This document shows positions 2,457 to 58,458 of a stretch of 64,000 nt of DNA, piece by piece. The position numbers and the translations under genes are program-made. How positions within the stretch are numbered: position 1 is the stretch's first letter; each line of letters opens with the position of its first letter. A model generated the notes under the pieces. That model ran no database searches. It saw only the letters and a program-made list of their open reading frames with translations, and was not told where the DNA came from. The stretch comes from an uncultured Oscillospiraceae bacterium (lineage in GTDB: Bacteria; Bacillota; Clostridia; Christensenellales; CAG-138), in NCBI GenBank assembly GCA_964600225.1, contig CAZRIT010000003.1, positions 13,400 to 77,399 of the forward strand, written 5' to 3'.

Positions 2457-2699
2457 ATCGAAAAACGTTGTTTTTCGATAGTGTAACCGCTTCTTGCCTA
2501 AAGTCCTGCGGACTTTGGGCGGCAAGAAGCACAAGGAAACCGCCCGAAACGGGCGATCCGTTCCGACGTACACGCCGTCGGAGCCGGAATGCATAGGGTT
2601 AAGGGCTGTGGCCCTTAACAATCCCCAAGGCTTTTTTTGACGGCGCAATCTATGGTAGAATACAAAAAATGGAAGAATCAGGAAAACGGGGGATTGCGC

Positions 2700-3668
2700 A
2701 TGGTCGATCAAAGGCTCAGGCTGCTGTTTATCAGGGATTACTTCTTTGAAAACACCGATGAAACGCATACCGTCACCGTGCCCGAGCTGATCGCGGCCAT
2801 CATGGCGGCGGGCTTTACGGCCGATCGGCGCACGGTCTATACCGATATCAAAAGCCTCTGCGCCTATGGCATGGATATCCGAAAGCGGCGCAGCAAGACG
2901 CACGATTACTATCTGGCCTCCCGCACATTTGAGCTGGCGGAACTGAAGCTGATGGTGGACGCGGTGCAGTCGGCGCGTTTCCTGACGGCCAAAAAATCGG
3001 ATCGGCTGATTCAAAAGCTGTCGAATTTGACCAGCCGCCACCATGCCCGTCAGCTGTCGCGGTATGTGCATGTGCAAAACCGCGTCAAAACCGATAACGA
3101 GCGCATCTATCAAACTGTGGACGCCATCCATGCCGCTGTCCGCGACGGCAGAAAGATCGGCTTTCGCTACTGCCAGTATACGCAGTCGGGCACGCTGCGG
3201 CCGCGGCGCGGCGGGGAAACGTATGTCGTCAGCCCGTATCTGCTAAGCTGGGCGGAGGATAACTACTACCTCATCGCCGATCATCCCGTGCATACGGGGC
3301 CGACGCACTATCGGGTGGACAAGATGACGGATGTGACGGTGCTGGAGGAGGCCCTGACCCCGCCCGAGCGTGCGCTGGAGCCCGCAGACTACGCCAAAAA
3401 GCTGTTCTCCATGTATGCGGGCGACGAAACGTGGGTGGAACTGGCGTTTGACGAAGCGCTTATCGGCGCGGCCATCGATCGGTTCGGCACGGATGTGACG
3501 ATACGGCAAACGGACGACGGCGCGTGCATCGTGCGCGCAAAGGTCGCCGTGAGCCCTTCGTTTTTCGGCTGGCTGTTTCAGTTTGGGGATCAGGTTACAA
3601 TCGTTTCGCCCGCGGACGTGCGCATGCGCATGGCGCAACTGCTCGCACAGACGCAGCGGCGCTATTGA
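2700..3668 (+). CDS. HTH-WYL-WCX domain transcriptional regulator (BrxR/CapW/PafC-like architecture)
   Basis: N-terminal wHTH 'HTVTVPELIAAIMAAGFTADRRTVYTDIKSL'. WYL core 'KIGFRYCQYT...YVVSPYLLSWAEDNYYLIADHP'. C-terminal 'FFGWLFQFGDQVTIVSPADVRMRM'. ATG 2700 chosen over track start 2637. Confidence 0.8.
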   Translation: MVDQRLRLLFIRDYFFENTDETHTVTVPELIAAIMAAGFTADRRTVYTDIKSLCAYGMDIRKRRSKTHDYYLASRTFELAELKLMVDAVQSARFLTAKKSDRLIQKLSNLTSRHHARQLSRYVHVQNRVKTDNERIYQTVDAIHAAVRDGRKIGFRYCQYTQSGTLRPRRGGETYVVSPYLLSWAEDNYYLIADHPVHTGPTHYRVDKMTDVTVLEEALTPPERALEPADYAKKLFSMYAGDETWVELAFDEALIGAAIDRFGTDVTIRQTDDGACIVRAKVAVSPSFFGWLFQFGDQVTIVSPADVRMRMAQLLAQTQRRY

Positions 3669-13997: not shown

Positions 13998-14978
13998 ATG
14001 ACGGAACAAACATGCAAGCAATGCAACTGGAAGGCGGATCTGCTGCCGTATCTGCCGCAATCGGTGCGGGCGCTCCTTGGCGGGCTGGATGCAAGGCTGC
14101 CGCTGGAGGAGATACGCATCCGCGCCGAGCGGCCCGTGCAGCTCTGCTTCGGGGGCTATGAACGGCTCCTGTACGCGGGCGGGCGCAGGCCGCCCGTGAC
14201 GGCGGGGGATTGCAGGGAGCTGATGCTGCGGCTGTGCGAGCATTCCGTCTATGCGCGCGGCACGGAGCTCAACAACGGATTTTTGACGCTGCCCGGCGGC
14301 TATCGGGTAGGGCTTTGCGGCGGCGTGATGGCCAACGGCGAGAGCATCGACCGATTGACGGACGTTACGGGCTTCAACATCCGCATTGCGCGCGCGCTGC
14401 CCGGGTGCGCCGAGGGACTGCTGCCGATGCTTGCGCAATCCGGGCGCTTGCTCAACACCCTGATCGTATCCGCCCCCGGCTGCGGCAAGACCACGTTGAT
14501 GCGGGATATTGCCAGGCTGTGCTCCGCGGGCGCGCGGGAGGTAAAGCCTTGCCGCGTGGCGGTGGTGGATACCCGCTACGAGCTGACGGGCAGCGTGGAC
14601 GGCGTGCCGCAGCTGGATATCGGGCCGCGCACCGATGTGCTCGCGGGCGCGCCGCGTGCGGCGGGGATGCGCATGATGGTGGTCAACATGGCGCCCGATA
14701 TCGTGGTGACGGATGAGATTGCAACGGTTTCGGATGCGCGCGCCGTGCTGGACGCGGCCGCGTGCGGCGTGACGGTGGCGGCCAGCGCGCACGCGGGCAG
14801 CGTGGGGGAGCTGATGCAAAAGCGCGCCATGTGGCAGCTGTTGCAGGCGCGGGTCTTTCGGCGCATCGTGCTGCTGGGGAGATCGCCGCGGGTGGGCACG
14901 GTGGAACGGGTGTATGACGAGGGACTGCAAAATTTGCCGTGGGAGGGTGCTGTATGCTGCGAACGGTTGCCGTGCTGA
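13998..14978 (+). CDS. spoIIIAA: stage III sporulation protein AA (ATPase)
   Basis: 'LEEIRIRAERPVQL', Walker A 'SAPGCGKTTLMRD', 'VVTDEI'. Confidence 0.9.
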   Translation: MTEQTCKQCNWKADLLPYLPQSVRALLGGLDARLPLEEIRIRAERPVQLCFGGYERLLYAGGRRPPVTAGDCRELMLRLCEHSVYARGTELNNGFLTLPGGYRVGLCGGVMANGESIDRLTDVTGFNIRIARALPGCAEGLLPMLAQSGRLLNTLIVSAPGCGKTTLMRDIARLCSAGAREVKPCRVAVVDTRYELTGSVDGVPQLDIGPRTDVLAGAPRAAGMRMMVVNMAPDIVVTDEIATVSDARAVLDAAACGVTVAASAHAGSVGELMQKRAMWQLLQARVFRRIVLLGRSPRVGTVERVYDEGLQNLPWEGAVCCERLPC

Positions 14979-15450
14979 TGTGCGCGCTCCTGTGCGCGCT
15001 GTGGGGCGTGAAAAGCTCGCTTTCGCTCAAAATCAGGCGCGATATGCTGTGCGCCGTGACCGAGGGGGTGGAGCGGCTTTCCGTCGGCATGGAGCACACC
15101 AACCGCCCGCTGGCCACGCTGCTGTACGGCTGCGGGCACGGCAGGGCGCAGCCGCTGTTTTCCGCCGTGGCGGATAATCTGCTTTGCGGCATGGGCGGCG
15201 CGGATGCGTGGACGGAGGCCATCGGCCGCATGCCGACGGGGCTGACGGAGGAGGACATTGCCATTTTAACGGATTTTTCCCTTACACTCGGGCAATCGAC
15301 CGACGGATGCAGCGCGGCAATACCGAGATGGCGCTGGCAAGCCTGCGCGCTGCCCGCGCCGAGGCCGAGAATGCCTATGCCACCAAGGGGCGCATATACA
15401 GCGCCATGGGCGCGCTGCTGGGCGCGTGCGTGGCGATACTGCTATGGTAG
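14954..15450 (+). pseudogene. spoIIIAB: stage III sporulation protein AB, interrupted by an apparent 1-nt frameshift near 15305
   Basis: The N-part 'MLRTVAVLMCALLCALWG...ILTDFSLTLGQSTD' is in one frame. The conserved C-part 'MQRGNTEMALASLRAARAEAENAYATKGRIYSAMGALLGACVAILLW*' is in the -1 frame from 15307. Confidence 0.7.
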
Positions 15451-15463
15451 GCGGTATGGCGTA

Positions 15464-15661
15464 ATGGAAGTGGAGATGCTGTTTAAGATTGCGGGCGTGG
15501 GCATCGTGGCGGCTATCGTGACGCAATTGCTCAAGCAGAGCGGGCGCGATGAAATGGCTACCATCGCCGCCATCGCGGGGCTTATCATCGGGCTGATGAT
15601 GATGCTGGATATGGTGGAGGAGCTGTTTACCAACGTGCGCGCCGTATTCAACCTGTACTGA
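15464..15661 (+). CDS. spoIIIAC: stage III sporulation protein AC
   Basis: 'MEVEMLFKIAGVGIVAAIVTQLLKQSGRDE...' aligns to B. subtilis 'MGVDVNVIFQIAGVGIVVAF...'. Confidence 0.85.
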   Translation: MEVEMLFKIAGVGIVAAIVTQLLKQSGRDEMATIAAIAGLIIGLMMMLDMVEELFTNVRAVFNLY

Positions 15662-15672
15662 GGAGAGCGGGC

Positions 15673-16068
15673 ATGAAGCTGATGCAGATACTGGTCATCG
15701 CCGTGGGCGGCGTGGCGCTGGCCGCCGTGGTGCGGCCCATCCGCAAGGAGATGGGCATGCTCATCGGCGCGGCCACGGGGCTGATCGTACTGGGGGCGGC
15801 GGTGGCGGAGTGGAGCGGGCTGATCGACGCGCTGCGGGAATTTGCCGCAGCCTACGGCGTGGACACGGGCTATATCGGGCTGCTTTTAAAGATCATCGGC
15901 ATTGCGTACCTGGCGCAGTTTGGCGCGCAGATCTGCACCGACGCAGGTGAAACGGCGGTGGCGGGCAAGGTGGAGCTGTTCGGGCGGGTGATGATACTGC
16001 TCAACGCCTTCCCAGCCGCCGCCATGACGGTGGCCACCGCCGTGGAGCTATTGGGCGGCAAGCCGTGA
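15673..16068 (+). CDS. spoIIIAD: stage III sporulation protein AD
   Basis: 131-aa membrane protein with 'LLKIIGIAYLAQFGAQICTDAGETAVAGKVELFGRVMIL'. Confidence 0.9.
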   Translation: MKLMQILVIAVGGVALAAVVRPIRKEMGMLIGAATGLIVLGAAVAEWSGLIDALREFAAAYGVDTGYIGLLLKIIGIAYLAQFGAQICTDAGETAVAGKVELFGRVMILLNAFPAAAMTVATAVELLGGKP

Positions 16069-17261
16069 GGCGGGCATGGTGCGGGCTTGCGGCGCTGGCT
16101 GCCGTGCTGCTGCTGCCCTGTGCGCGGACGCTGGCCGAGCCTGAGGAGACGCCGCCGCCCGACTTATCCGTGTCCGACGGCGTATCGGCCTGGACGGATA
16201 CGCTGGACTGGGCGGAGCTGGAGCGGCTGATGGCGCTGCTGCCAAACGAGGTGCGCGCGCTGTGGGGCGGCATGGGCGCGGCGGACACGGCACGGGAGAT
16301 CGCGCAATCGGGCACATGGGCGCTTGGCGGCGCGGGGAGGGTGTGGAGCGCCATCGGCGCGCTGCTGGAAACGGAGCGGAAGGCGCTTTGGGGCACGGCG
16401 GCCGCGCTTGTGGGGCTGACGCTGATGGGCGGCATCGTCGGCTCGCTCGGCGGCGACGGCAAAAGCGGCGTGCAGGATGCGGCGGGGTTTGTGTGCCGCT
16501 GCTTTACGCTCAGCGCGGTGCTGGCAGCGTTTGCGGGCGCATCCAAAAACGCCGTGGAGGGACTGCGGATCATGTGCGGCTGCATGGAGGCGGCCACGCC
16601 CGTGCTGATGACGCTCTTGACCGCGCTGGGGGGCACGGCGAGCGTGGGCGTGTATCAGCCCGCCATGGCGCTGTTAAGCGGCAGCGTGGGTAAGGTGATG
16701 GAGGGCGTGGTTGCGCCGCTGACCATGTGCGCGGGGCTGCTGGGCCTGTTTGAGCAGGTGGCGGAGCGGGTGCGGCTGGGGGAGCTGAGCGGGCTGATCC
16801 GCACCTGCCTCAAGTGGGCCATCGGGCTGATGGACACGCTGTATGCGGCCGTGACCACGCTGGGCGGCATGACGGCGGCGGCGTTCGACGGCGTAACGGT
16901 GCGCACGGCCAAGTATGCCGCAGGCAGCCTGTTACCGATGGCGGGGAGCCTGGTGACGGGATCGTTCGATGTGGCGCTGGGGTGCGCGGCGCTGGTGAAA
17001 AACGCCGTGGGGCTGACCAGCGTACTCATCTGCGTGGGGCTGATGCTTTCCCCCATGGTGAAGCTCGCGGCCACCATGCTCATGCTGCGCATCGCCGCGG
17101 CCATAACGGAGCCCATTGCGGACAAGAAGCAGACGGGCATGCTGCGCGTGGGCGCGGATATGATGGGCATGCTGCTCACCGCCAACGCCGTGGCCATGGG
17201 CATGTTTTTGATCACCGTGGGGCTGGTGACGGGCGTGGGCGGCGTGGGCTGGATCGGGTGA
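16065..17261 (+). CDS. spoIIIAE: stage III sporulation protein AE
   Basis: Signal peptide plus a polytopic protein in the conserved position. GTG start overlaps the AD stop. Confidence 0.9.
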   Translation: MRRAWCGLAALAAVLLLPCARTLAEPEETPPPDLSVSDGVSAWTDTLDWAELERLMALLPNEVRALWGGMGAADTAREIAQSGTWALGGAGRVWSAIGALLETERKALWGTAAALVGLTLMGGIVGSLGGDGKSGVQDAAGFVCRCFTLSAVLAAFAGASKNAVEGLRIMCGCMEAATPVLMTLLTALGGTASVGVYQPAMALLSGSVGKVMEGVVAPLTMCAGLLGLFEQVAERVRLGELSGLIRTCLKWAIGLMDTLYAAVTTLGGMTAAAFDGVTVRTAKYAAGSLLPMAGSLVTGSFDVALGCAALVKNAVGLTSVLICVGLMLSPMVKLAATMLMLRIAAAITEPIADKKQTGMLRVGADMMGMLLTANAVAMGMFLITVGLVTGVGGVGWIG

Positions 17262-17265
17262 CGGC

Positions 17266-17445
17266 ATGCAGACGATCGAAACGTTTACGGCCAATGTGAT
17301 TGCGCTGTCGATGTGCGTGGCGCTGGCGGAGTACGCCATCCCCGCGGGCACGCTTAAAAACACCGTGTCGGTGGCGGTGGGGCTGGTGTTTTTATCCGCT
17401 CTGGCTGATCAGATATTGGTCATATTTGCGCACTGGGGGGTATAA
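17266..17445 (+). CDS. spoIIIAF: SpoIIIAF-like protein reduced to the N-terminal two-TM segment (59 aa; below the track's 60-aa cutoff)
   Basis: My own translation is 'MQTIETFTANVIALSMCVALAEYAIPAGTLKNTVSVAVGLVFLSALADQILVIFAHWGV*'. It aligns to the B. subtilis SpoIIIAF N-terminus ('...IDMLLPSSSMQKYAKMVVSLLLIVVMLTPI'). It sits exactly between AE and AG. Confidence 0.5.
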   Translation: MQTIETFTANVIALSMCVALAEYAIPAGTLKNTVSVAVGLVFLSALADQILVIFAHWGV

Positions 17446-17447
17446 AC

Positions 17448-18068
17448 ATGCAAACAGATACACATTTTGCGCGGCCCGAGCGAAAGCGCATCGGACGCTT
17501 TTGGGAACGGCTGACGGGCGCCATCCGCAACAACAAGCGGCTGGAGTACGCCGTGTACGGGGGCATTGCGCTGATTGCGGTGATACTGTACGCGGCAAGC
17601 CTCATGCCGAAAAAAGCGGACGAGGGGCCGTTGACCAAGGCGTCCGAGCCGACGCAGGCGGCGCGCGTGGAGCAGCGGCTTCGATCGGTGCTCGGCTGCA
17701 TCCGCGGCGCGGGCAGGGTGGAGGTGATGGTCACCTACGAATCGGGCACGGAGCTTGTGACGGCCATGAGCACCAACGTTTCGGGCAACGCCTCGGAAAC
17801 CAGCGACGGGCAGAAGCTCAGCGTCACATCCCAAACGACCCAGTCCAGCCAGCCCGCCACCGTCGACGGCGCAGGTGGCAACGAGCCCATCATCCTGATG
17901 GAAAAGGAGCCCGCCGTGCGCGGCGTGATCGTGGTGGCGGAGGGAGCGGCGGATATCCGCGTCAAGCTGGATTTGCAGCGCGCGGTGCAGGCGGTGCTCG
18001 ACGTGCCGCTGTCCAAGATAGAGGTGTTTGAACTATCGTCGGCAACGGCTGCCGATGCAAGGGAATGA
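17448..18068 (+). CDS. spoIIIAG: stage III sporulation protein AG
   Basis: N-terminal TM, 'RLRSVLGCIRGAGRVEVMVTYESG', 'EPAVRGVIVVAEGAADIRVKLDLQRAVQAVLDVPLSKIEVFEL'. Confidence 0.85.
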   Translation: MQTDTHFARPERKRIGRFWERLTGAIRNNKRLEYAVYGGIALIAVILYAASLMPKKADEGPLTKASEPTQAARVEQRLRSVLGCIRGAGRVEVMVTYESGTELVTAMSTNVSGNASETSDGQKLSVTSQTTQSSQPATVDGAGGNEPIILMEKEPAVRGVIVVAEGAADIRVKLDLQRAVQAVLDVPLSKIEVFELSSATAADARE

Positions 18069-18081
18069 AGGAGGGATAACC

Positions 18082-18606
18082 ATGAAAAGGAGCAGCGGCA
18101 TGAATACGAAGGTGAACGGAAGGCTTTGGACGCTGTGCGGCGTTGCGCTGATACTGGTGGGCGCGGTGGCGGTCAACCTGATTGTCAACAGGGACAAGGC
18201 GGCGGATGCCGACAGCGTGCAGGCCTCGGCACAGACGGGACAGCCCGCGGCCGCGGCGCAGAAGGGCTTTTTTGAATCGTTCCGCATGGAGCGGGATGAA
18301 ACGCGCGAGCAGGAGATCGCCTACATCGACACCATCATCGTGCAGGGCGCGGACGCGGAGACCATGGCCGACGCCCAGCAGCAGAAGCTGGCCATCGTGG
18401 ACGCCATGGAAAAGGAGATGACCATCGAAAGCCTGCTGCGCGCCAAGGGCTTTGCCGATGCGGCGGTGACGCTGCACGCGGGCGCCGTCAACGTGGTCTT
18501 GCAGGCGGAGACGCTTTCGCCCGAGCAGGTGGCGCAGGTGCTGGATATCATCGTGCGTGAAACGGGAGAAAAGACGGACAATATCAAGATTACAACCGCG
18601 CAGTAG
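18082..18606 (+). CDS. spoIIIAH: stage III sporulation protein AH
   Basis: TM anchor, 'FFESFRMERDETREQEI', 'VTLHAGAVNVVLQAETLSPEQVAQVLDIIVRETG'. SD GAAGGAGGG before ATG 18082. Confidence 0.8.
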   Translation: MKRSSGMNTKVNGRLWTLCGVALILVGAVAVNLIVNRDKAADADSVQASAQTGQPAAAAQKGFFESFRMERDETREQEIAYIDTIIVQGADAETMADAQQQKLAIVDAMEKEMTIESLLRAKGFADAAVTLHAGAVNVVLQAETLSPEQVAQVLDIIVRETGEKTDNIKITTAQ

Positions 18607-26933: not shown

Positions 26934-28607
26934 TTGCTGCGTCGTCTGTCCATCGGCAACATTGCGCTGATCGATCAACTGGATATGACATTTTACGATG
27001 GATTTTCCGTTATGACGGGTGAAACCGGCGCAGGAAAATCCATCATTATCGAAGCGCTCAATTTTGTGCTGGGCGAGCGCGCCAGCAGGGAACTGATCCA
27101 ATCGGGCGCGGCAAAGGCGTATGCCGAGGCCACCTTTACATTGGCCGAGGGCGACGCCGTGCAGGCCGTGATGGAGGAGTTTGCCATCGAGGCGGACGAG
27201 GGCGAGCTGACGCTGTATCGCGAGCTGACGGCAGGCGGCAAGAACGTCTGCCGCGCCAACGGCATCCTCATCACCGCCAACATACTCAAGCGCATCGGGG
27301 ACGCGTTGGTCGATATCCACGGCCAGCACGCGCACCAGTCCCTGCTCAACCCCAAGCTGCATATCGACCTGCTGGACGCGTTTGCGGGCGAACGGATACT
27401 GCCCGTGAAGGAGCGCGTGCGCGCCATGTGCAGGCTGGCGCAGGAGACGGCAAGGGCGCTGCAATCGGCCGAGATGGACGAGCGCGAGCGCGAGCGGCGC
27501 ATCGACCTGCTAACATATCAGGTCAAGGAGATTGACGAGGCCAAGCTGACCGACGGCGAGGAGGAAACGCTCACCGAGCAGCGCGGAATCTTGCAAAACG
27601 CGCAGTCCATCATGGATGCGCTGGAGATCGGCGCCGAGGCGCTCAACGGCGAGGAGGGCGCGCTTTCCGCCATGTCCGCAGCGCAGCGGGCTCTGGACGC
27701 CATCGCCCCGTTTCACAGCGATTATGCCGATGCGGCGGATAAGCTGCGCGAGGCATACTATGCGCTGGAGGATACGGCGTACGCGGTGCGGGATATGCGA
27801 AACGGCTTTTCCTACGAGCCCAAGCAGCTCGACGAAATCGAGTGGCGGCTGGAACAGTTGACGGCGTTGAAGCGCAAGTACGGCGCAAGCATCGCGGAGG
27901 TGCTGGCCTACCGCGAAGAGAGCGTGCGGGAGCTGGAGTTGCTGGAGGGCATCGAGGAGCGCCGTGAAAAGCTGACCAAAGCCAACGAAGCCGCGCAAAA
28001 CGATTATCGGCAGGCGGCGCAGGCGTTGACCGAAATCCGTCAGGAGACGGCCGCGCTGCTGAAGGAACGGCTGCTGCCCGAGCTGAATGATTTGGGCATG
28101 CCGCACGCGGCGTTTGCCGCCGAGGTGACCGAAAGCGGGACGGCGATTGCGCCCAACGGCAGCGACAATGTGGAGTTTTTGCTGTCCACCAACCGCGGCG
28201 AACCGCTCAAGCCCTTGTCCCGCGTGGCGTCGGGCGGCGAAATCTCGCGCATCATGCTGGCGTTCAAATCCGTACTGAGCGATTTGGACGGCATCCCCAC
28301 GATGGTGTTTGACGAAATCGATTCGGGCATCAGCGGGCGCATCGGCACGGATGTGGCCGTTAAGATGCGGCAAATTGCCAAGCGCCATCAGGTGCTGTGC
28401 ATCACGCACCTGCCGCAGATTGCCGCCTATGCAAACAGACAATATTTGGTATTTAAGCAAACCGACGGCACGCGCACGCACACCGATGCGCTGCTGCTGG
28501 ACGACGAGCGCCGCGCATCGGAGATTGCGCGGATCATGGGCAGTGCGCCAGACGATGCGGTGGCCTTGCAGCACGCACGGCAATTGATGGAGGCGGCGCG
28601 GGCGTAG
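26934..28607 (+). CDS. recN: DNA repair protein RecN
   Basis: 'LRRLSIGNIALIDQLDMTF..GFSVMTGETGAGKSIIIEAL', 'ASGGEISRIMLAFK', 'VFDEIDSGISG'. TTG start with an AGGAGG SD. Confidence 0.95.
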   Translation: MLRRLSIGNIALIDQLDMTFYDGFSVMTGETGAGKSIIIEALNFVLGERASRELIQSGAAKAYAEATFTLAEGDAVQAVMEEFAIEADEGELTLYRELTAGGKNVCRANGILITANILKRIGDALVDIHGQHAHQSLLNPKLHIDLLDAFAGERILPVKERVRAMCRLAQETARALQSAEMDERERERRIDLLTYQVKEIDEAKLTDGEEETLTEQRGILQNAQSIMDALEIGAEALNGEEGALSAMSAAQRALDAIAPFHSDYADAADKLREAYYALEDTAYAVRDMRNGFSYEPKQLDEIEWRLEQLTALKRKYGASIAEVLAYREESVRELELLEGIEERREKLTKANEAAQNDYRQAAQALTEIRQETAALLKERLLPELNDLGMPHAAFAAEVTESGTAIAPNGSDNVEFLLSTNRGEPLKPLSRVASGGEISRIMLAFKSVLSDLDGIPTMVFDEIDSGISGRIGTDVAVKMRQIAKRHQVLCITHLPQIAAYANRQYLVFKQTDGTRTHTDALLLDDERRASEIARIMGSAPDDAVALQHARQLMEAARA

Positions 28608-28649: not shown

Positions 28650-29948
28650 ATGAAGGAATGGCTGAATGGGAAATCCCCGTTGATCGGTAAACAAAATCGA
28701 ATCCGCATGCGGCTGATGCAATGCCTTGGCATATTGGCATGCGTGCCGATGATGGCGCTGTATCTGTCGGCGCCCATGCGGGCGCTGCGCGAAATGCCCG
28801 CGGCCATCCGTCTGCCGCGCGGCGCGGCGGCCGAGGATACGGCTTGGCAGCGGCCAAAATGGCTGACGGCCGATACCGTGGCGGTGCCCGTTTCGCAGCG
28901 GGGCGACGAACGGCTGACGGATATCGATCGGTTCACGCGCACCTATCGGCTGTTCGGCGTGGTGCCGATCAAGACCGTCGAGGTGCTGCGCACCGATGAG
29001 GTATACCTGGTACCCGGCGGCGCGGCGGTGGGCATCACCATCCATACGCGCGGCGTGATGGTGGTGGGCCTGGGCGCGGTGGATACCGCGGGCGGGGCGC
29101 TGAGCCCCGGCAGCGTGGCGGGCATCCGTGCGGGCGACGTAATCGTTTCCGCAGGCGGCGTGGCCGTTCGGGACGCGGAGCATCTCATGCAGCTATCCCA
29201 GTCGTGCGACGGGCTGATGACCGTAACGCTGGAACGCGAGGGCACGCGCGTGGATACCGCGGTGCGGTTGGTGGCCGACGCCGTGGACGGGGCGCTGCGC
29301 ATGGGATTGTGGGTGCGCGACAGCACCGCGGGCGTTGGCACGCTTTCCTTTTACGATGCGGAAACGGGCTGGTTTGCAGCGCTCGGGCACCCCGTCAACG
29401 ATGTGGATACGCAATCGCTGTTGCCTGTTGGCGAGGGCAAAATTGTATCGGCCGAGGTGCTGGATGTGCGCACGGGCGCGGAAGGGTATCCCGGCGAACT
29501 GGTGGGCGTGTTTGACGAAAGCATCGGCGCTCTGGGCGATATCCGCCTGAATACGGAGTTTGGGGTATTCGGGCCGATGCGCGCGCCCTATCAAAACCCC
29601 GTGATGTATCAACTGCCGCTCGGGTACGCGTACGAGGCGCACACGGGCGCGGCGTCCATACTGGCCACGGTATCGGATGTGGGCGTGCAGTCGTTTTCGT
29701 GCGAGATCATCCGCGTCAACGCGCAGTCCAACGCCGCCACCAAGGGCATGATTGTACAGGTGACGGATGAAAAGCTGATGGCGCAGACGGGCGGCATCGT
29801 GCAGGGCATGAGCGGCTGCCCGCTGATACAGGATGGCAAGCTGGTGGGCGTGGTCACGCATGTGTTTGTCAACGACCCCACGCGCGGGTATTGCGTGTAT
29901 GCCGAATGGATGCGTGAAATCCTGCTGGGCGCCGCCAAGGCGACATAG
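28650..29948 (+). CDS. spoIVB: SpoIVB peptidase (S55) with PDZ domain
   Basis: 'GVGTLSFYDAETGWFAALGHPV', 'GGIVQGMSGCPLIQDGKLVGVVTHVFVNDPTRGYCVYAEWM'. Confidence 0.9.
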   Translation: MKEWLNGKSPLIGKQNRIRMRLMQCLGILACVPMMALYLSAPMRALREMPAAIRLPRGAAAEDTAWQRPKWLTADTVAVPVSQRGDERLTDIDRFTRTYRLFGVVPIKTVEVLRTDEVYLVPGGAAVGITIHTRGVMVVGLGAVDTAGGALSPGSVAGIRAGDVIVSAGGVAVRDAEHLMQLSQSCDGLMTVTLEREGTRVDTAVRLVADAVDGALRMGLWVRDSTAGVGTLSFYDAETGWFAALGHPVNDVDTQSLLPVGEGKIVSAEVLDVRTGAEGYPGELVGVFDESIGALGDIRLNTEFGVFGPMRAPYQNPVMYQLPLGYAYEAHTGAASILATVSDVGVQSFSCEIIRVNAQSNAATKGMIVQVTDEKLMAQTGGIVQGMSGCPLIQDGKLVGVVTHVFVNDPTRGYCVYAEWMREILLGAAKAT

Positions 29949-29986
29949 CGCGGCAACAACGGACAGAGGGGGATGGGAGTGGGCGA

Positions 29987-30748
29987 ATGATCAGTACGAT
30001 GCTCATTGCGGGGAACAACGCCGCCGAAACGGCCGCGCTGGAAAAGGTGTTCTCCTATCTGGAGGATATTACGCTGCTGCCAGCGGTGCACGATGGCAGG
30101 GCGGCCGTTGATACCATCCTGCATCACAAGGTCGATATCCTGCTGCTGGATATGTTTTTGCAGCAGCTCGACGGGCTTTGCGTGATCGAACAGGTTGATC
30201 GGCTTGCTGAGGATCGCCGCCCGCTGATATTCGTCATGACCGATATCTCCGACGACCGCTTTTTGCACCGCGTGCGCGATAGGATCATCTATTGCTTTGT
30301 CAAGCCATTGCAATACGAGCTGGTGCAGCTTAGGGTGCTGGAGCTTTCGCGCACGGTGTACGCATCGGCCGGCGCCAAGGAGGCAAAGATTGATTTGCTG
30401 GATCGGCAGATTGCCGCGGATGTGCGCGCCATCGGCGTGCCCGCGCACCTGAAGGGCTACTATTATCTGCGCGACGCCATCCGCATCTATGCGCTCTCCA
30501 ACCGTCCCACCGAGATCAGCATCACCAACGATATCTATCCCATGGTCGCCAAGATGTACAACACCCGCCCGACGCTGGTGGAGCACGCCATCCGCAACGC
30601 CATCGAGATTGCGTGGACGCGCGGCAACCTGGATACCATCTACGAATACTTCGGCTATACCGTCAACGATTACAAGGGCAAGCCCAGCAATCGGGAATTC
30701 GTGGCGATGATGGCAGAGCGCGCGCTGAACGATTTGAAGCGGCGCTGA
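29987..30748 (+). CDS. spo0A: sporulation master regulator Spo0A (atypical receiver: DD pocket replaced by GN)
   Basis: C-domain 'GVPAHLKGYYYLRDAIRIY', 'HAIRNAIEIAWTRGNLDTIYEYFGYTVNDYKGKPSNREFVAMMAE'. Receiver 'MLIAGNNAAE...DILLLDMFLQQLDG...IFVMTD...CFVKPL'. Confidence 0.9.
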   Translation: MISTMLIAGNNAAETAALEKVFSYLEDITLLPAVHDGRAAVDTILHHKVDILLLDMFLQQLDGLCVIEQVDRLAEDRRPLIFVMTDISDDRFLHRVRDRIIYCFVKPLQYELVQLRVLELSRTVYASAGAKEAKIDLLDRQIAADVRAIGVPAHLKGYYYLRDAIRIYALSNRPTEISITNDIYPMVAKMYNTRPTLVEHAIRNAIEIAWTRGNLDTIYEYFGYTVNDYKGKPSNREFVAMMAERALNDLKRR

Positions 30749-30772: not shown

Positions 30773-30822
30773 AAATAAAACGGCGGCTGTGCGGGGTTTC
30801 CCGCACAGCCGCCGTCTGTTGC
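30773..30822. terminator. bidirectional terminator, 15-bp stem CGGCGGCTGTGCGGG/CCCGCACAGCCGCCG
   Basis: Between the convergent spo0A and 5'-nucleotidase genes. A/T runs on both sides, with TTTTATTT on the minus strand. Confidence 0.7.
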
Positions 30823-32679: not shown

Positions 32680-33279
32680 ATGGGGCGGATTGGCATAAAA
32701 CAGCGGACAGGCGGTGCGGCGCGCGGCGTAAGGGCTGCGGGCGTTGCCGCCTGGTGCGGCATGATGACGCTGGGCGCGGCCATGGGCAGGGCGCTGTTTG
32801 AAACGCTCCGAAAGGATGCGTTTGCGGCGCTGCTGGCGGCGGCGCAAACGGGCGAACCCGCCGCAGTGCCGTCGCTGCTGCTTTCGGTGCGGTCGGTATT
32901 GCCCATGGCGCTGTACGGCATGACGATGCTGCTGTGCGGCTGTTCGAGGTGGCTGCTGCCGCTGTGGGCGGCGGCCGTGGCGGCGGCGGGCATGGTGACG
33001 GGCGCGGCGGCGGCGGTCGGTCTGTGCCTGTGGGAAGCGGGCCATTGGCAAGTGGTGCTGGGCACGATGGGCTTGCAGGCGGTGATCCTGCTGCCGCAGA
33101 TGCTGCTTATAGCGCTGTGGCCGCCGGAGCGCGCGTGGGGAACGCGCCTCCTGCCGCGGCAGGAGGCGGACGGGGCGGACGTGACGCGTTTTTTGATACG
33201 CCTGACGGTAGCCTGCGTATCGTCATCGCTGATGCAAACGGCGTCGTACGCGTGGTGGGTGCGCGCATTGTTCCGTTGA
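32680..33279 (+). CDS. polytopic membrane protein, possibly SpoIIM-like; start uncertain
   Basis: Weak resemblance to B. subtilis SpoIIM: 'GLQAVILLPQMLLIALW' versus 'FVSVLPQNLLLIPAYL'. About 5 hydrophobic segments. Ala/Gly-rich, so the call is tentative. Confidence 0.4.
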   Translation: MGRIGIKQRTGGAARGVRAAGVAAWCGMMTLGAAMGRALFETLRKDAFAALLAAAQTGEPAAVPSLLLSVRSVLPMALYGMTMLLCGCSRWLLPLWAAAVAAAGMVTGAAAAVGLCLWEAGHWQVVLGTMGLQAVILLPQMLLIALWPPERAWGTRLLPRQEADGADVTRFLIRLTVACVSSSLMQTASYAWWVRALFR

Positions 33280-35630: not shown

Positions 35631-35660
35631 TCATGAACGCCCTCCGTTTCGACATAGTAT
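35631..35660 (+). promoter_or_regulatory. sigma-E-like promoter (T)CATGAAC-N14-CATAGTAT upstream of the dacB-like gene
   Basis: Same pattern as upstream of spoIIIAA and spoIVA, about 25 nt before ATG 35685. Confidence 0.3.
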
Positions 35661-53599: not shown

Positions 53600-53629
53600 G
53601 TCTATTGTAACCAAGCGCCTTCATATACT
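53600..53629 (+). promoter_or_regulatory. sigma-E-like promoter (G)TCTATTG-N14-CATATACT upstream of spoIVA
   Basis: Same -10 pattern as the spoIIIAA and dacB-like upstream regions, 35 nt before ATG 53665. Confidence 0.3.
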
Positions 53630-53664
53630 TGTATGGATTGATACGGGATAGAAGGAGGCTTGGC

Positions 53665-55143
53665 ATGGACAGGAATACGCTTTATCGGGACATTGCCCAA
53701 CGCACGCAGGGCGACATCTACATCGGGGTGGTCGGGCCTGTCAGGACGGGCAAGTCCACGTTCATCAAGCGGTTCGTGGAATTGCTTGTCTTGCCGAACA
53801 TCGATAACGAGCATATCAGACAGCGCACGCTCGACGAGCTGCCGCAATCGGCCGCGGGCAAAACCGTCATGACCACGCAGCCAAGGTTTGTGCCCAACGA
53901 CGCCGCGCACATTGTGCTTGGCGAGCATGTGGGCTTCAACGTGCGGCTGGTGGACTGCGTGGGCTACATGGTGCCGGGCGCCATCGGCTCTACCGAAAAC
54001 GGCGCGCCGCGCATGGTCAGCACCCCGTGGTACGATCATGACATCCCCTTTTCGGAGGCGGCGGAGCTTGGCACCAAAAAGGTGATGACCGAGCACTCCA
54101 CAGTGGGGATTGTGATGACCACCGACGGCAGCATCACCGACCTGCCGCGGGAGGCGTATGTGGACGCCGAGCAGCGTGTGGTGGAGCAGATGCGGCAGAC
54201 GGGCAAGCCCTTCCTGATCGTGCTCAACAGCGCCAACCCCAACGGCGAGGCGGCGCAAACGCTTAAGCTTGAGCTCGAGCAGCGCTACGGCGTGGGCGTG
54301 TGCCTGATGGATGTGATGCGCATGAGCCTGTCGGGCACGCAGGAACTGCTCACGCAGATGCTGATGGAGTTCCCGCTCAGGCTGATCGAAATCAAGCTGC
54401 CCGGCTTTATGCGCGCGCTGCCTGCCGAGCACCCGCTGATACAACGGGTGATGCTGCCGATCCTTTCGACGCTGGAAGGGCTGCATCGGCTGCGCGATTA
54501 CCGCATGCTCATCGACGCCCTGACCGATATCGAGCAGTTCACGGGCGCGCGCGTGGAAAAGGTGCTGCTGGGCGAGGGCACGGCGACGCTTTCCCTGCAG
54601 CCCGAGGACAGTCTGTTCTATGCGGTATTGAGCGAGCAGTGCGGCTGCGAAATTGCGGACGAGTACGATTTGATTACCAAGCTGACCGATTTTTCACACG
54701 CCAAGCGCGAGTACGACCGCATTGCCGATGCATTATATGACGCCACCAACCTGGGCTACGGCATGGTATCGCCCGATATTTCGCTTATGCAGCTGGAGGA
54801 ACCGCAGATCACCAGGCAGGGCAACCGCTTTGGCGTGCGGCTGCGTGCGCGCGCAACGGGGCTGCACGTCATCCGCGTGGACGTGGAGAACGAGGTCAAC
54901 CCCATCGTCGGCACCGAGCAGCAATCGGAGGCGCTGGTGCGGTATCTGGCCGAAACGTTCGAGCAGGACCCACAGGCCATTTGGCAGACCAACATCTTCG
55001 GCAAACCGCTCTACGACCTGGTGCAGGAGGGCATGCAGGGCAAGATCAACCGCATGCCGGAAAACGTCCGCAGCCGCGTGCAGACCACCCTGCAGCGCAT
55101 CGTCAACGAAGGCTGCAACGGGTTAATCTGCATCATGCTGTAA
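53665..55143 (+). CDS. spoIVA: stage IV sporulation protein A (coat basement-layer ATPase)
   Basis: 'IYRDIAQRTQGDIYIGVVGPVRTGKSTFIKRF', full-length colinear protein. SD GAAGGAGG. Confidence 0.95.
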   Translation: MDRNTLYRDIAQRTQGDIYIGVVGPVRTGKSTFIKRFVELLVLPNIDNEHIRQRTLDELPQSAAGKTVMTTQPRFVPNDAAHIVLGEHVGFNVRLVDCVGYMVPGAIGSTENGAPRMVSTPWYDHDIPFSEAAELGTKKVMTEHSTVGIVMTTDGSITDLPREAYVDAEQRVVEQMRQTGKPFLIVLNSANPNGEAAQTLKLELEQRYGVGVCLMDVMRMSLSGTQELLTQMLMEFPLRLIEIKLPGFMRALPAEHPLIQRVMLPILSTLEGLHRLRDYRMLIDALTDIEQFTGARVEKVLLGEGTATLSLQPEDSLFYAVLSEQCGCEIADEYDLITKLTDFSHAKREYDRIADALYDATNLGYGMVSPDISLMQLEEPQITRQGNRFGVRLRARATGLHVIRVDVENEVNPIVGTEQQSEALVRYLAETFEQDPQAIWQTNIFGKPLYDLVQEGMQGKINRMPENVRSRVQTTLQRIVNEGCNGLICIML

Positions 55144-56210: not shown

Positions 56211-57221
56211 ATGAGACAAGCATACAAAACACAGGGCGCGTTCACCCGTGCCCGCAGAAAACGTACGCATAGACCGTTGACGGTGCAGGAAATGGTGCTG
56301 TGGGTTGCATGCCTGGTGTGGCTGGCGGCGCTGAGCATTGCGGGGGTTTCGCTCAAAAAGAACCCCGCGGATACGCTGTTGAGCACCGCGTTTCCCGCCT
56401 ACCTGAGTATCGACGGCATGGCCACGGCCGCGCAGCAGGCCGCGGGCGCAAAGCCCAAGCTGACCATCGTGGCAACCACGGGGCAGGAACCCGCGGTGGA
56501 GGCGGCGGCCGTGCAGGCGGAGGCGGCGCTGCGGATTTTGATCTACCATACCCATGCAACCGAGGCGTACCTGATGACCGACGACGCGCCGTACGAGGAA
56601 AGCGGAAGCTTCCGCACCAAGGACAACAGCAAAAATGTGGTCGCGGTGGGCGCGGCGCTCAAGGACGAGCTGAAAAAGTACGGCCTGGTCGCCATCCACG
56701 ATACCGAAAATTACGAGCCGCCCAAGCTTTCCAGCGCGTACAGCCGTTCGCTGACGGCCATGCTGGATTATCAGGCGCAGTATCCCTCCGTCGAGGTGTT
56801 CATCGATGTGCACAGGGACGCCTACGGCACCGAAACGGACGTGCCGAAGGATTTTGTGGAGTATGAGGGCACACAAACGGCGCGCGTGATGTTTGTGGTG
56901 GGCACGGGCGAGGGCGCAACGGGCAGCGGGTTTGAACAGATGCCCGATTTTGCCTCCAACCTGAAGTTGGCGGAGGCGGTGACGGATCATATTGCCGATC
57001 GGGACGAGCGGCTGGTGCGGCAGGTGCGCGTCAAAACGGGCCGCTACAACCAGCATGTATCGGGCATGTGCCTGCTGGCGGAGGTGGGGCACAACGCCAA
57101 CACCCTTTCGCAGGCGCTAGCCGCCGTGCCGCTGCTGGCCGAGGCCATTGCCGACGCGCTGGAAAACAAACAGGCCGATACGCAAATGCACGTATCGGCC
57201 ATGTCGGTTTGGACGCCGTAA
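56211..57221 (+). CDS. spoIIP: stage II sporulation protein P
   Basis: TM anchor, 'ILIYHTHATEAY', 'VFIDVHRDA'. Confidence 0.85.
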   Translation: MRQAYKTQGAFTRARRKRTHRPLTVQEMVLWVACLVWLAALSIAGVSLKKNPADTLLSTAFPAYLSIDGMATAAQQAAGAKPKLTIVATTGQEPAVEAAAVQAEAALRILIYHTHATEAYLMTDDAPYEESGSFRTKDNSKNVVAVGAALKDELKKYGLVAIHDTENYEPPKLSSAYSRSLTAMLDYQAQYPSVEVFIDVHRDAYGTETDVPKDFVEYEGTQTARVMFVVGTGEGATGSGFEQMPDFASNLKLAEAVTDHIADRDERLVRQVRVKTGRYNQHVSGMCLLAEVGHNANTLSQALAAVPLLAEAIADALENKQADTQMHVSAMSVWTP

Positions 57222-57231
57222 AGAAAAACGA

Positions 57232-58458
57232 TCAGACCATATGGAAGCGGTTTTTCAACACGTCGACGGCCTTGTGCGCATCCACCGAGTCCACCAAAAA
57301 CTCGATCTTGGTATCGCTGGTGGTCACCAGTTGCAACTGGATATCGGCCGAGGACAGCACATCAAACAGCTCCGACGCCACGCCGTGACGCAGCGCCATG
57401 CCCGCGCCCTCCACGGTGCACTTGACCATATCGCTGTGGGAAACAACGCGCAGCTGCGGCTGGGCGCTGAGGATGGGCTTGAGCGCGCGGAACGCATCGA
57501 GAAGCTGGCTTTGCCGCAGCGACACGCCGATGGAGAACGCATCCGACGCCGCGTGGGAAAGCGAAATCATATCGATGAACACGCCCTCCGCGGCCAGGCT
57601 GTCGAACAGGGCCTTGACGGGGTTGCTGTCGGCATAGCTGCCGGATACGGTGATGAGCGCCTGCTGATCCAGCACCGAAAGGCGGGAGGCAACATCGTGC
57701 TCGGTGACGACGCTTTCCATGTTATACAGCCCTGCGTCACGGCCGACCAGGAAGGAGGCCGCGCGCAGCGCCCCGCAGGCAAACACCTGCTTGCTGTACG
57801 CGATGTGCGAAATTTCGACAATCTCGTCCTCGCCGATGAACATCACCTTGTGTTCGCCCGGGATGGTGCCGCCGCGGATGGAGTGGATGCCGATCTCGCT
57901 TGCGGTGCGGCGCTTGTTCTTTTCGTGGCGGCCGTAGACATACTCCGTCTCGTGCGCCTTTTGGGCGTTGATGGCGTCGGCCAGCATGAGCGCTGTGCCG
58001 CTGGGGGCGTCGATTTTGAAGTGGTGGTGCTTTTCGACAATCTCCACCTCGTAGTTTTCCCCAAGCGCCGCCGCAGCCTCCTTGGCAAGGGTAAGCTGCA
58101 CGTTGACGCCGAGCGACATGTTGCCCGTCTGGAACACGGGGATGCGCTCGGCAGCCTTGCGGATCAGCCGCATATCCCGTTCGCTCAAGCCCGTGGTGGC
58201 AATGATGGCGGGGATGCGCTTTGCCTGCGCATAGCGCAACACGTTTGGCAGCGTGGCAGGCACCGTAAAATCGATGATGATATCGGGCGTCTCCTTGACG
58301 TCGTCGAGAGAGGTGTAGACGGGGCAGGCAAAATCACTGCCGCTTGCGGCAACGTCCACGCCCGCCACAACGGAAAACGCGCCGCTTTGTGCCAGCGCGG
58401 TGGCGTAGACGGCGCGCCCCATCCTACCCATAATACCGTGGATGAGGATGCGAATCAT
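57232..58458 (-). CDS. dapB: 4-hydroxy-tetrahydrodipicolinate reductase fused to a C-terminal aspartokinase-type ACT-ACT module (408 aa)
   Basis: DapB core 'IRILIHGIMGRMGRAV...EVEIVEKHHHFKIDAPSGTAL...IHSIRGGTIPGEHKVMF'. This is followed by about 145 aa: 'ALITVSGSYADSNPVKALFDSLAAEGVFIDMIS...VKCTVEGAGMALRHGVASELFDVLSSADIQLQLVTTSDTKIEFLV'. Confidence 0.85.
   Translation of the reverse strand: MIRILIHGIMGRMGRAVYATALAQSGAFSVVAGVDVAASGSDFACPVYTSLDDVKETPDIIIDFTVPATLPNVLRYAQAKRIPAIIATTGLSERDMRLIRKAAERIPVFQTGNMSLGVNVQLTLAKEAAAALGENYEVEIVEKHHHFKIDAPSGTALMLADAINAQKAHETEYVYGRHEKNKRRTASEIGIHSIRGGTIPGEHKVMFIGEDEIVEISHIAYSKQVFACGALRAASFLVGRDAGLYNMESVVTEHDVASRLSVLDQQALITVSGSYADSNPVKALFDSLAAEGVFIDMISLSHAASDAFSIGVSLRQSQLLDAFRALKPILSAQPQLRVVSHSDMVKCTVEGAGMALRHGVASELFDVLSSADIQLQLVTTSDTKIEFLVDSVDAHKAVDVLKNRFHMV

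Follow-up and report, generated by a model that had tools for sequence, protein, structure and literature searches.

A Spo0A orthologue without the acidic Mg2+-binding pair of its receiver domain, and the clade that shares the change

Can the master regulator of sporulation work without the residues that hold the metal for its own phosphorylation? Spo0A is the textbook example of a master regulator activated by phosphorylation. The question is raised by the spo0A gene in a 64,000-nucleotide stretch of DNA (the window; GenBank assembly GCA_964600225.1, contig CAZRIT010000003.1, positions 13,400 to 77,399 of the forward strand) from an uncultured Oscillospiraceae bacterium that GTDB places in the Christensenellales (CAG-138). 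The original prediction, made from the DNA letters alone, held that this gene encodes Gly-Asn at the two consecutive aspartates (here DD1 and DD2) that coordinate Mg2+ in receiver domains, with the phospho-acceptor Asp and the conserved Thr and Lys retained. Positions are given below relative to those conserved residues (for instance K-3, three residues before the Lys). The parts of the gene concerned are as follows.

29987..30748, + strand: spo0A orthologue, 253 residues, receiver plus Spo0A_C DNA-binding domain (matches to PF08769, TIGR02875 and Spo0A entries of the Protein Data Bank, PDB)
29987..30365, + strand: receiver (pseudo-receiver) domain, residues 1-126, (beta-alpha)5 fold (PF00072, AlphaFold2, superposition on 1qmp)
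30011..30016, + strand: codons GGG AAC, Gly9-Asn10 at the Mg2+-binding Asp-Asp site (DD1, DD2) (sequence, profile and structure alignments)
30149..30151, + strand: Asp55, phospho-acceptor position (invariant in 78/78 aligned relatives)
30239..30244, + strand: Thr85, the conserved Thr, and Asp86 (T+1) (column statistics)
30251..30259, + strand: Asp89-Asp90-Arg91, with Arg91 at T+6 (column statistics)
30293..30295, + strand: Cys103 (K-3), in place of the aromatic switch residue of Y-T coupling (column statistics)
30302..30310, + strand: Lys106-Pro107-Leu108, the conserved Lys, K+1 Pro and K+2 Leu, not Phe (alignment)

Sequence, profile and structure give the same register for the replacement. 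The 253-residue product begins with MISTMLIAGNNAAETAALEKVF, and in HMMER alignments to solved Spo0A receivers its 'mliaGNnaae' faces 'vciaDDnrel' of 1dz3/1qmp and 'vaDDnrel' of 9phz, with 5wq0 also aligned. The Pfam PF00072 alignment, which scores 30.0 bits and so falls just short of the 30.2 gathering cut-off, sets residue 10 at profile position 6, and MAFFT returns the same GN/DD register whether 120 homologues or 80 genome loci are aligned. D55 (DILLLDMFLQQLDG), T85 (IFVMTD) and K106 (CFVKPL) align with the acceptor Asp, the Thr and the Lys. An AlphaFold2 model built from a 78-sequence alignment (predicted local distance difference test score 93.4) has beta1 at residues 3-8, the G9-N10-N11 loop at 9-11 and alpha1 at 12-22; beta3, beta4 and beta5 carry D55, T85 and K106, respectively, at their C-terminal ends. 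Foldseek superposes the model on phospho-Spo0A-N (1qmp) with a template modelling (TM) score of 0.86-0.87 and a root-mean-square deviation of 1.4-1.5 A. The structure register thus agrees with the sequence register, and Gly9-Asn10 occupy the normal Asp-Asp positions of Spo0A. The domain has the CheY-like receiver fold by model and superposition and lacks the full active-site quintet (DD, D, T/S, K), with G9 and N10 replacing DD. With both DD positions non-acidic it is a pseudo-receiver as defined by Bourret et al. 2025 (PMC12632262), and since Asp55 is present it is not an aspartate-less receiver (ALR). Both the predicted DD-to-GN change and the retention of Asp, Thr and Lys therefore stand, and the structural modelling that the original prediction had named as a check leaves GN at the DD site.

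Is the missing pair a sequencing or assembly error, or the product of a mis-called start? The features that bear on this, and on the identity of the gene, lie just around it.

26934..28607, + strand: recN, upstream of spoIVB
28650..29948, + strand: spoIVB (SpoIVB peptidase), directly upstream of spo0A (TIGR02860, 374.6 bits, cut-off 305)
29975..29979, + strand: Shine-Dalgarno-like GGGAG, 7 nt 5' of the ATG (read from the sequence)
30778..30817: GC-rich, terminator-like hairpin between the convergent spo0A and 5'-nucleotidase genes

At least 23 contigs, assembled from different sequencing runs, encode exactly this 253-residue protein between the same neighbouring genes, and dozens of related species share the feature. 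The start is backed by the ribosome-binding site, by the N-termini of homologues, which coincide with it, and by the spoIVB stop only 38 nt upstream. The ATG is the first ATG/GTG/TTG past an in-frame stop, and a beta1-DD motif is absent from every frame upstream of it. An upstream start or a frameshift that would provide DD was considered and rejected on the in-frame stop, the 38-nt gap and the lack of DD in any frame, in agreement with the earlier argument that no in-frame upstream start could supply the pair. Error as the explanation is refuted by replication across samples, and we regard it as vanishingly improbable.

Is the gene the Spo0A of its organism? The order of genes at the locus is nusB-xseA-xseB-ispA-dxs-tlyA-nadK-argR-recN-spoIVB-spo0A, and this nusB...recN-spoIVB-spo0A arrangement is the same as in Bacillus and Clostridium. 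The open reading frame at 29987-30748 is the positional orthologue of spo0A, and the canonical spoIVB-spo0A locus that had been predicted is borne out by the recN-spoIVB-spo0A order. One could suppose instead that it is a paralogue or displaced copy and that a canonical DD Spo0A elsewhere in the genome is the real master regulator: spo0A paralogues occur in 11/118 Spo0A-positive genomes (10.1101/2022.02.25.481979), our reading covers 64 kb of this genome and, in relatives, flanks no longer than 10 kb, and the protein scores 185.2 bits against TIGR02875, the NCBIfam Spo0A equivalog, under its cut-off of 200. Clade members are named by NCBI merely 'Spo0A C-terminal domain-containing protein'. 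We consider this supposition improbable, as the gene holds the ancestral recN-spoIVB-spo0A position here and in relatives, a search for a second Spo0A-like gene, also suggested by the original prediction, found none within the 64-kb window, and a second locus was seen in 0/17 clade assemblies among the best 80 genome matches, a weak point that depends on the search pattern.

The gap between spoIVB and spo0A (29949-29986) is 38 nt here, 26 nt in the nearest relative and ~200-270 nt in distant ones. A scan limited to sigma-70 found no sigma-70-like promoter for spo0A in the 3' part of spoIVB (29300-29987); spo0A may share a transcript with spoIVB or rely on another sigma factor.

How far does the loss of the acidic pair extend? 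Among the best 120 homologues, DD1 is small or polar (S, C, T, A, G, V) and DD2 is N, G, S, H, Q, A or E in ~80 cluster representatives of 40-66% identity, a neighbouring group at ~41% identity has Asp followed by G/A/S, and canonical DD is first met at ~35% identity. Of the 78 aligned sequences, 53 have neither acidic residue, 19 are without DD2 only and 6 are canonical, and Asp55 is invariant throughout. The fully DD-less group (53 representatives, including this one) has S/C/G/T/A followed by N/G/S at the site. A simple neighbour-joining tree, rooted on the canonical DD proteins, arranges these states as nested, with DD2 lost in the shared ancestor of both groups and DD1 later in one of them. 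In one sub-clade (C-E/A ... S ... M) the Lys has also become Met and Ser stands for Thr, with the acceptor Asp kept; its members are P0025, P0035, P0039, P0042, P0044, P0047 and P0050, and a genomic locus is L088 (10001-10762). Judged by alignment and tree, the loss of the acidic pair is old, clade-wide and stepwise. The loss is no one-genome peculiarity, and the alignment across relatives that the original prediction proposed extends DD2 loss over a deep clade and its sister group. The clade loci L005-L021 (one genome per species) come from metagenome-assembled genomes (MAGs) labelled Christensenella sp., Christensenellaceae, Eubacteriales, Clostridiales, 'uncultured Oscillospiraceae' and Clostridium sp. 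CAG:1024, a taxonomy taken from record titles. Among the genome matches listed, the full quintet is present in 55/63 other Spo0A loci.

What else changed in the receiver when the pair was lost? Column statistics comparing both DD2-less groups (n=72) with canonical relatives reveal a set of co-occurring residues. K-3 is Cys (Cys103 here) in 70/72 DD2-less relatives whereas canonical relatives have Tyr, and T+6 is Arg (Arg91 here) in 71/72 whereas it varies in canonical Spo0A. Further, the DD2-less groups have Asp at T+4 (Asp89 here) and Leu/Val/Met at K+2, where canonical relatives have Ser/Asn and Phe, respectively. Asp86 at T+1 is unique to the protein of this species, its relatives having Ala/Pro/Ser. 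Loss of the T/K-3 pair is typical among pseudo-receivers, and at K+2 Phe pushes CheY towards inactive conformations and Leu/Val/Ile/Ala towards active ones (PMC12632262). The receiver of DD-less proteins is 25% identical to that of canonical proteins, which are 45% identical among themselves, and 63% identical within the DD-less clade; the corresponding values for the DNA-binding domain are 48%, 70% and 77%. Judged from these comparisons, the altered receiver is under purifying selection, because it combines 63% identity within the clade with 25% to canonical proteins, has zero indels within the clade and keeps D55 in 78/78.

A conserved receiver of this kind bears on whether the protein might be a relic that decays as its lineage loses sporulation, its pocket shaped by relaxed selection. 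The window and its relatives offer further evidence in the following genes, the last two of which are, with spoIVB (28650-29948), the window counterparts of genes lost in the S-N sub-clade described below.

13998..18606, + strand: spoIIIAA-AH operon, intact
53629..55143, + strand: spoIVA (TIGR02836, 670 bits, cut-off 460)
56211..57221, + strand: spoIIP (PF07454, 168.9 bits)
32680-33279: gene for a membrane protein of ~199 residues
35664-36827: S11 carboxypeptidase gene

The organism retains core sporulation-specific genes in good condition. In relatives a DD-less or DD2-less Spo0A likewise adjoins spoIVB (L014, L017, L019, L020, L085, L088), the Lys-less L088 with spoIVB intact, and the sister-group locus L087 has spo0A with spoIVB and spoIIIAA-AH. 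The Spo0A of the closest relative (P0002, C-N type) and a SpoIVA/Gpr locus are in the same MAGs (GCA_036651815.1, GCA_036649015.1), where the loci L085/L095/L097 pair a DD-less Spo0A with SpoIVA and Gpr. A relic would fit the observations that many non-spore-formers keep Spo0A (10.1101/2022.02.25.481979), that one sub-clade has lost spoIVB and neighbouring genes and that one MAG copy is frameshifted (L021). However, the receiver has no indels and 63% identity within the clade, the clade-specific R91, C103, F22 and D55 are invariant, the state persists through divergence to ~40% identity, and the sporulation genes of the window are intact and high-scoring (SpoIVA 670 bits, SpoIVB 375 bits). With spoIIIA, spoIVB, spoIVA and spoIIP intact in the window and in several relatives, Spo0A does not look like a relic, and we hold that explanation to be very improbable.

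The sub-clade in question, of S-N type (L005-L013, L016, L021; L086, L090, L091), has recN directly next to spo0A (site at ~3900-4000 in L005-L013, L016 and L021, and at ~9900-10950 in L086, L090 and L091). Its loci are otherwise collinear but lack spoIVB, the gene for the ~199-residue membrane protein, which is conserved and matches no family, and the S11 D-Ala-D-Ala carboxypeptidase gene. Among the best 120 SpoIVA clusters, no cluster's longest contig matched the 2.85-Mb, 1.31-Mb or 0.26-Mb contigs of S-N genomes, an indirect sign. The S-N sub-clade is probably an asporogenous lineage that holds a Spo0A-like regulator, kept and highly conserved where sporulation genes are gone. On gene order, the loss of the pocket long preceded any loss of sporulation genes and was independent of it, because a DD-less Spo0A adjoins spoIVB here and in several relatives. 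This mixed picture matches two MAG studies in which a few Christensenellales MAGs resemble spore-formers, while cultured members do not sporulate. In L021 (4001-4755) the S-N-type spo0A is frameshifted between receiver and DNA-binding domain, which is either a pseudogene or an assembly error.

Has the output of the protein changed along with its input? The DNA-binding half comprises two features.

30425..30721, + strand: Spo0A_C DNA-binding domain, residues 147-245 (PF08769, AlphaFold2, Foldseek)
30569-30622, + strand: recognition helix, residues 195-212 (Leu197, His200 and Asn204 non-canonical)

The domain scores 111.6 bits (E 2e-32) against PF08769, and Foldseek matches it to 1fc3/1lq1 with TM 0.82-0.87 and 47-51% identity. 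The recognition helix does not have the canonical residues: Leu197, His200 and Asn204 stand at the positions of B. subtilis Arg211, Arg214 and His218, and an Asn stands at that of K195. In canonical loci (n=55), R211 is R in 52/55 and K in 3, and R214, H218 and K195 are each present in 55/55. R211L and H218N are common to the sister group, and R214H and K195N are confined to the fully DD-less group. The domain had been described as near-canonical; the Spo0A_C fold is indeed kept, but the recognition helix is altered at canonical positions. As far as these residues tell, input and output domains have been remodelled in parallel, and the sub-threshold TIGR02875 score arises because both have. 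The protein may now bind a motif other than the classical 0A box. The 0A-box sequence TGTCGAA occurs 9 times in the window against 6.1 expected, which is not significant, and because the recognition helix differs the count is uninformative. One perfect TGTCGAA core lies at 35648-35654 (- strand), ~10 nt 5' of the annotated start of the S11 carboxypeptidase gene (dacB/dacF-like).

How, then, might this Spo0A be activated? The acidic pair was said to hold the Mg2+ needed for phosphotransfer, which agrees with DD2 being a direct metal ligand in receivers (PMC12632262) and with the severe sporulation defects of D10A and D11A in C. difficile Spo0A (10.1101/2022.02.07.479450). Many clade members have Gly or Ala at DD2, residues unable to bind metal. 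We hypothesize that this Spo0A is a conserved pseudo-receiver whose activation bypasses canonical Mg2+-dependent phosphotransfer, and on the sequence comparisons this has about an even chance of being right. In the clade the direct Mg2+ ligand DD2 disappeared first and DD1 afterwards; alongside, Cys took the place of the aromatic K-3 residue and Leu/Val/Met that of the K+2 Phe, a new Arg arose at T+6 and the recognition helix was remodelled. Activation, we infer, would be freed from canonical Mg2+-dependent phosphotransfer by a kinase. Asp55, Thr85 and Lys106 would be kept as a charge and hydrogen-bond network on which the active or dimeric state depends, a role like that of the conserved Asp in GlnR and RamR, and activity would be governed by the amount of protein, by a partner protein, by a ligand or by redox. 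Spo0A would still drive sporulation genes, possibly through a diverged 0A box, and in the lineage without spoIVB it would have other targets. Because the Lys-less sub-clade retains both Asp55 and spoIVB, the acceptor Asp appears, by its pattern of conservation, to serve some purpose besides phosphorylation in part of the clade at least. A bolder form of the idea is that a deep Christensenellaceae-like lineage initiates sporulation through a Spo0A on which aspartyl phosphorylation never occurs, that another signal (protein level, partner protein, ligand, or redox through the clade-invariant Cys103/Arg91) has replaced phosphorylation and that 0A-box specificity has co-diverged; we put this forward tentatively, as falling somewhat short of probable.

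Several observations pull the other way. D is kept in 100%, T/S in ~94% and K in 87% of the fully DD-less group, and K in 100% of the sister clade, whereas D, T/S and K are jointly kept in only ~65% of pseudo-receivers generally (PMC12632262); such high retention would be expected if phosphorylation continued. T+1 is mostly Ala, the K+1 Pro is invariant and the D+8 Gly is conserved, and because these positions are receiver-like, access to the site is not evidently blocked. Asn occupies DD2 in 29/53 of the crown group, and Mg2+ could in principle be bound by its side chain. Phosphotransfer can survive substitutions at DD, T or K (PMC12632262). Spo0A might on these grounds still depend on phosphorylation, with a weakened or altered metal site and slower or higher-threshold activation, the phosphoryl group coming from orphan kinases and Mg2+ being coordinated by Asp55, the backbone carbonyl at D+2, water and perhaps Asn10 (or, in this species, Asp86). 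The D55, T/S, K, K+1, D+8 and T+1 conservation just listed and the status of Asn as the commonest DD2 residue of the crown group fit this well, as does the fact that the best superposition of the model is on phosphorylated Spo0A-N, and some Asp-keeping pseudo-receivers may be less efficient response regulators (PMC12632262). However, DD2 is Gly/Ala/Ser/His/Gln/Ile in many members and in the whole sister clade, residues that cannot ligate metal, which means that Asn is no conserved ligand. Nor is DD1 acidic, the aromatic switch residue is gone, the sub-clade without Lys keeps Asp55 and spoIVB, and the C. difficile D10A and D11A changes are severe losses of function. Residual phosphorylation is a serious possibility that we nonetheless consider doubtful. 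Activation without canonical phosphotransfer is thus the reading we prefer. The original prediction had spoken of a rewired or disabled mechanism, of which rewiring is the best, though inferred, reading, and disablement is unlikely in view of the conserved receiver and the intact sporulation genes.

Which known systems does this protein resemble? Like canonical Spo0A (B. subtilis, G. stearothermophilus, C. difficile; 1qmp, 1dz3, 1fc3, 1lq1), it has the two-domain architecture and folds (TM 0.82-0.87), the locus 3' of spoIVB/recN, the acceptor Asp, Thr and Lys and the Spo0A_C signature motifs GVPAHxKGYxYLR, FGYT and GKPxNxEF. It differs in Gly-Asn for Asp-Asp, the K-3 Cys, the K+2 Leu and the new Arg91, in a receiver only 21-26% identical where canonical proteins are ~45% identical to each other, in Leu, His and Asn for Arg211, Arg214 and His218, in a shorter linker that is predicted to be helical and in a score under the TIGR02875 cut-off. 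For E. coli CheY, Bourret and colleagues reportedly found in 1990 that the DD2 mutants D13K/R are active without phosphorylation and that D13N is poorly phosphorylated. A change at DD2 can there abolish phosphorylation and bias the domain to the active state; those are laboratory mutants of a single-domain protein, whereas the natural clade carries extra changes that may compensate.

Among natural regulators, actinomycete GlnR and Streptomyces RamR have a retained Asp that matters for dimer formation and not for phosphorylation (PMC12632262). They share an incomplete quintet with Asp retained, and here Asp55 is kept even where Lys is lost, but their output is of OmpR/NarL type instead of Spo0A_C and they belong to another phylum; the resemblance is one of logic, and homology extends to the receiver fold only. 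Streptomyces WhiI/BldM are atypical orphan developmental regulators with degenerate pockets and no canonical phosphorylation (PMC4125116, PMC12632262). They too are developmental master regulators with a degenerate receiver pocket, but they serve exospore development in Actinobacteria with unrelated regulons and act as a heterodimer. ALRs (PMC4395418) and this Spo0A are both subsets of the pseudo-receivers, yet ALRs by definition lack the acceptor Asp, and Asp55 is invariant here.

The literature searched, which did not include subscription papers, held no prior description of Spo0A orthologues without the acidic pair, and the 2025 pseudo-receiver review (PMC12632262), Davidson et al. 2018 and Galperin et al. 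2022 do not describe a DD-less Spo0A. The protein is a pseudo-receiver form of a well-known regulator: pseudo-receivers are known, and we found no description of a Spo0A form. Because the spore-making genes are intact while the Mg2+ pair is lost, bacteria of this clade probably switch sporulation on in a non-standard way, which makes the clade a natural experiment on the rewiring of sporulation initiation and a developmentally central addition to the pseudo-receivers, a poorly understood group. A Spo0A that is never aspartyl-phosphorylated would, if real, break the rule that phosphorylation controls all Spo0A proteins. Further, marker-based predictions of sporulation for gut and digester MAGs may miscall the clade, because its proteins fall under the NCBIfam cut-off and are annotated only by their C-terminal domain.

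Are degenerate pockets confined to this clade? An exhaustive HMMER search of 1.84 billion 50%-identity representatives returned 241 proteins at E <= 1e-30. Of 119 aligned representatives with both receiver and Spo0A_C, drawn from the nearest 150 matches (P0241-P0386 search), only 45 carry a complete DD-D-T/S-K quintet and in 56 DD2 is non-acidic, in a list skewed towards the atypical query. These counts suggest that many metagenomic Spo0A-like proteins have a degenerate pocket and that DD2 is the residue most often lost; DD2 is also the favoured loss among pseudo-receivers in general (PMC12632262). The commonness of such pockets among these proteins appears to be undescribed. The acceptor Asp is replaced in 11/56 DD2-less proteins against 6/63 others, a difference that is not significant (Fisher p = 0.13, phylogeny ignored).

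Further independent atypical Spo0A loci are present among species representatives (L022, L040, L066, L069; L051, L076, L081, L082): Lawsonibacter-type proteins have D-A at DD, and in L051, L076, L081 and L082, which count as ALRs, the acceptor Asp is replaced by N (with K to M), S, N and E, respectively. We also observed tandem proteins with three or four Spo0A_C domains and no receiver (P0073, P0245, P0249, P0274; L089 547-1731), of which P0073 lies just 3' of a DnaB-like helicase gene fragment, a hint of a mobile element or phage. Elsewhere in the window, a dapB gene (57232-58458, - strand) for a protein of 408 residues with a C-terminal ACT domain lies by dapA and asd and adjoins spoIIP, and a WYL + WCX protein, a putative ligand-sensing regulator, is encoded at 2637-3668 (+ strand), 3' of a ribosome hibernation factor gene (1792-2394).

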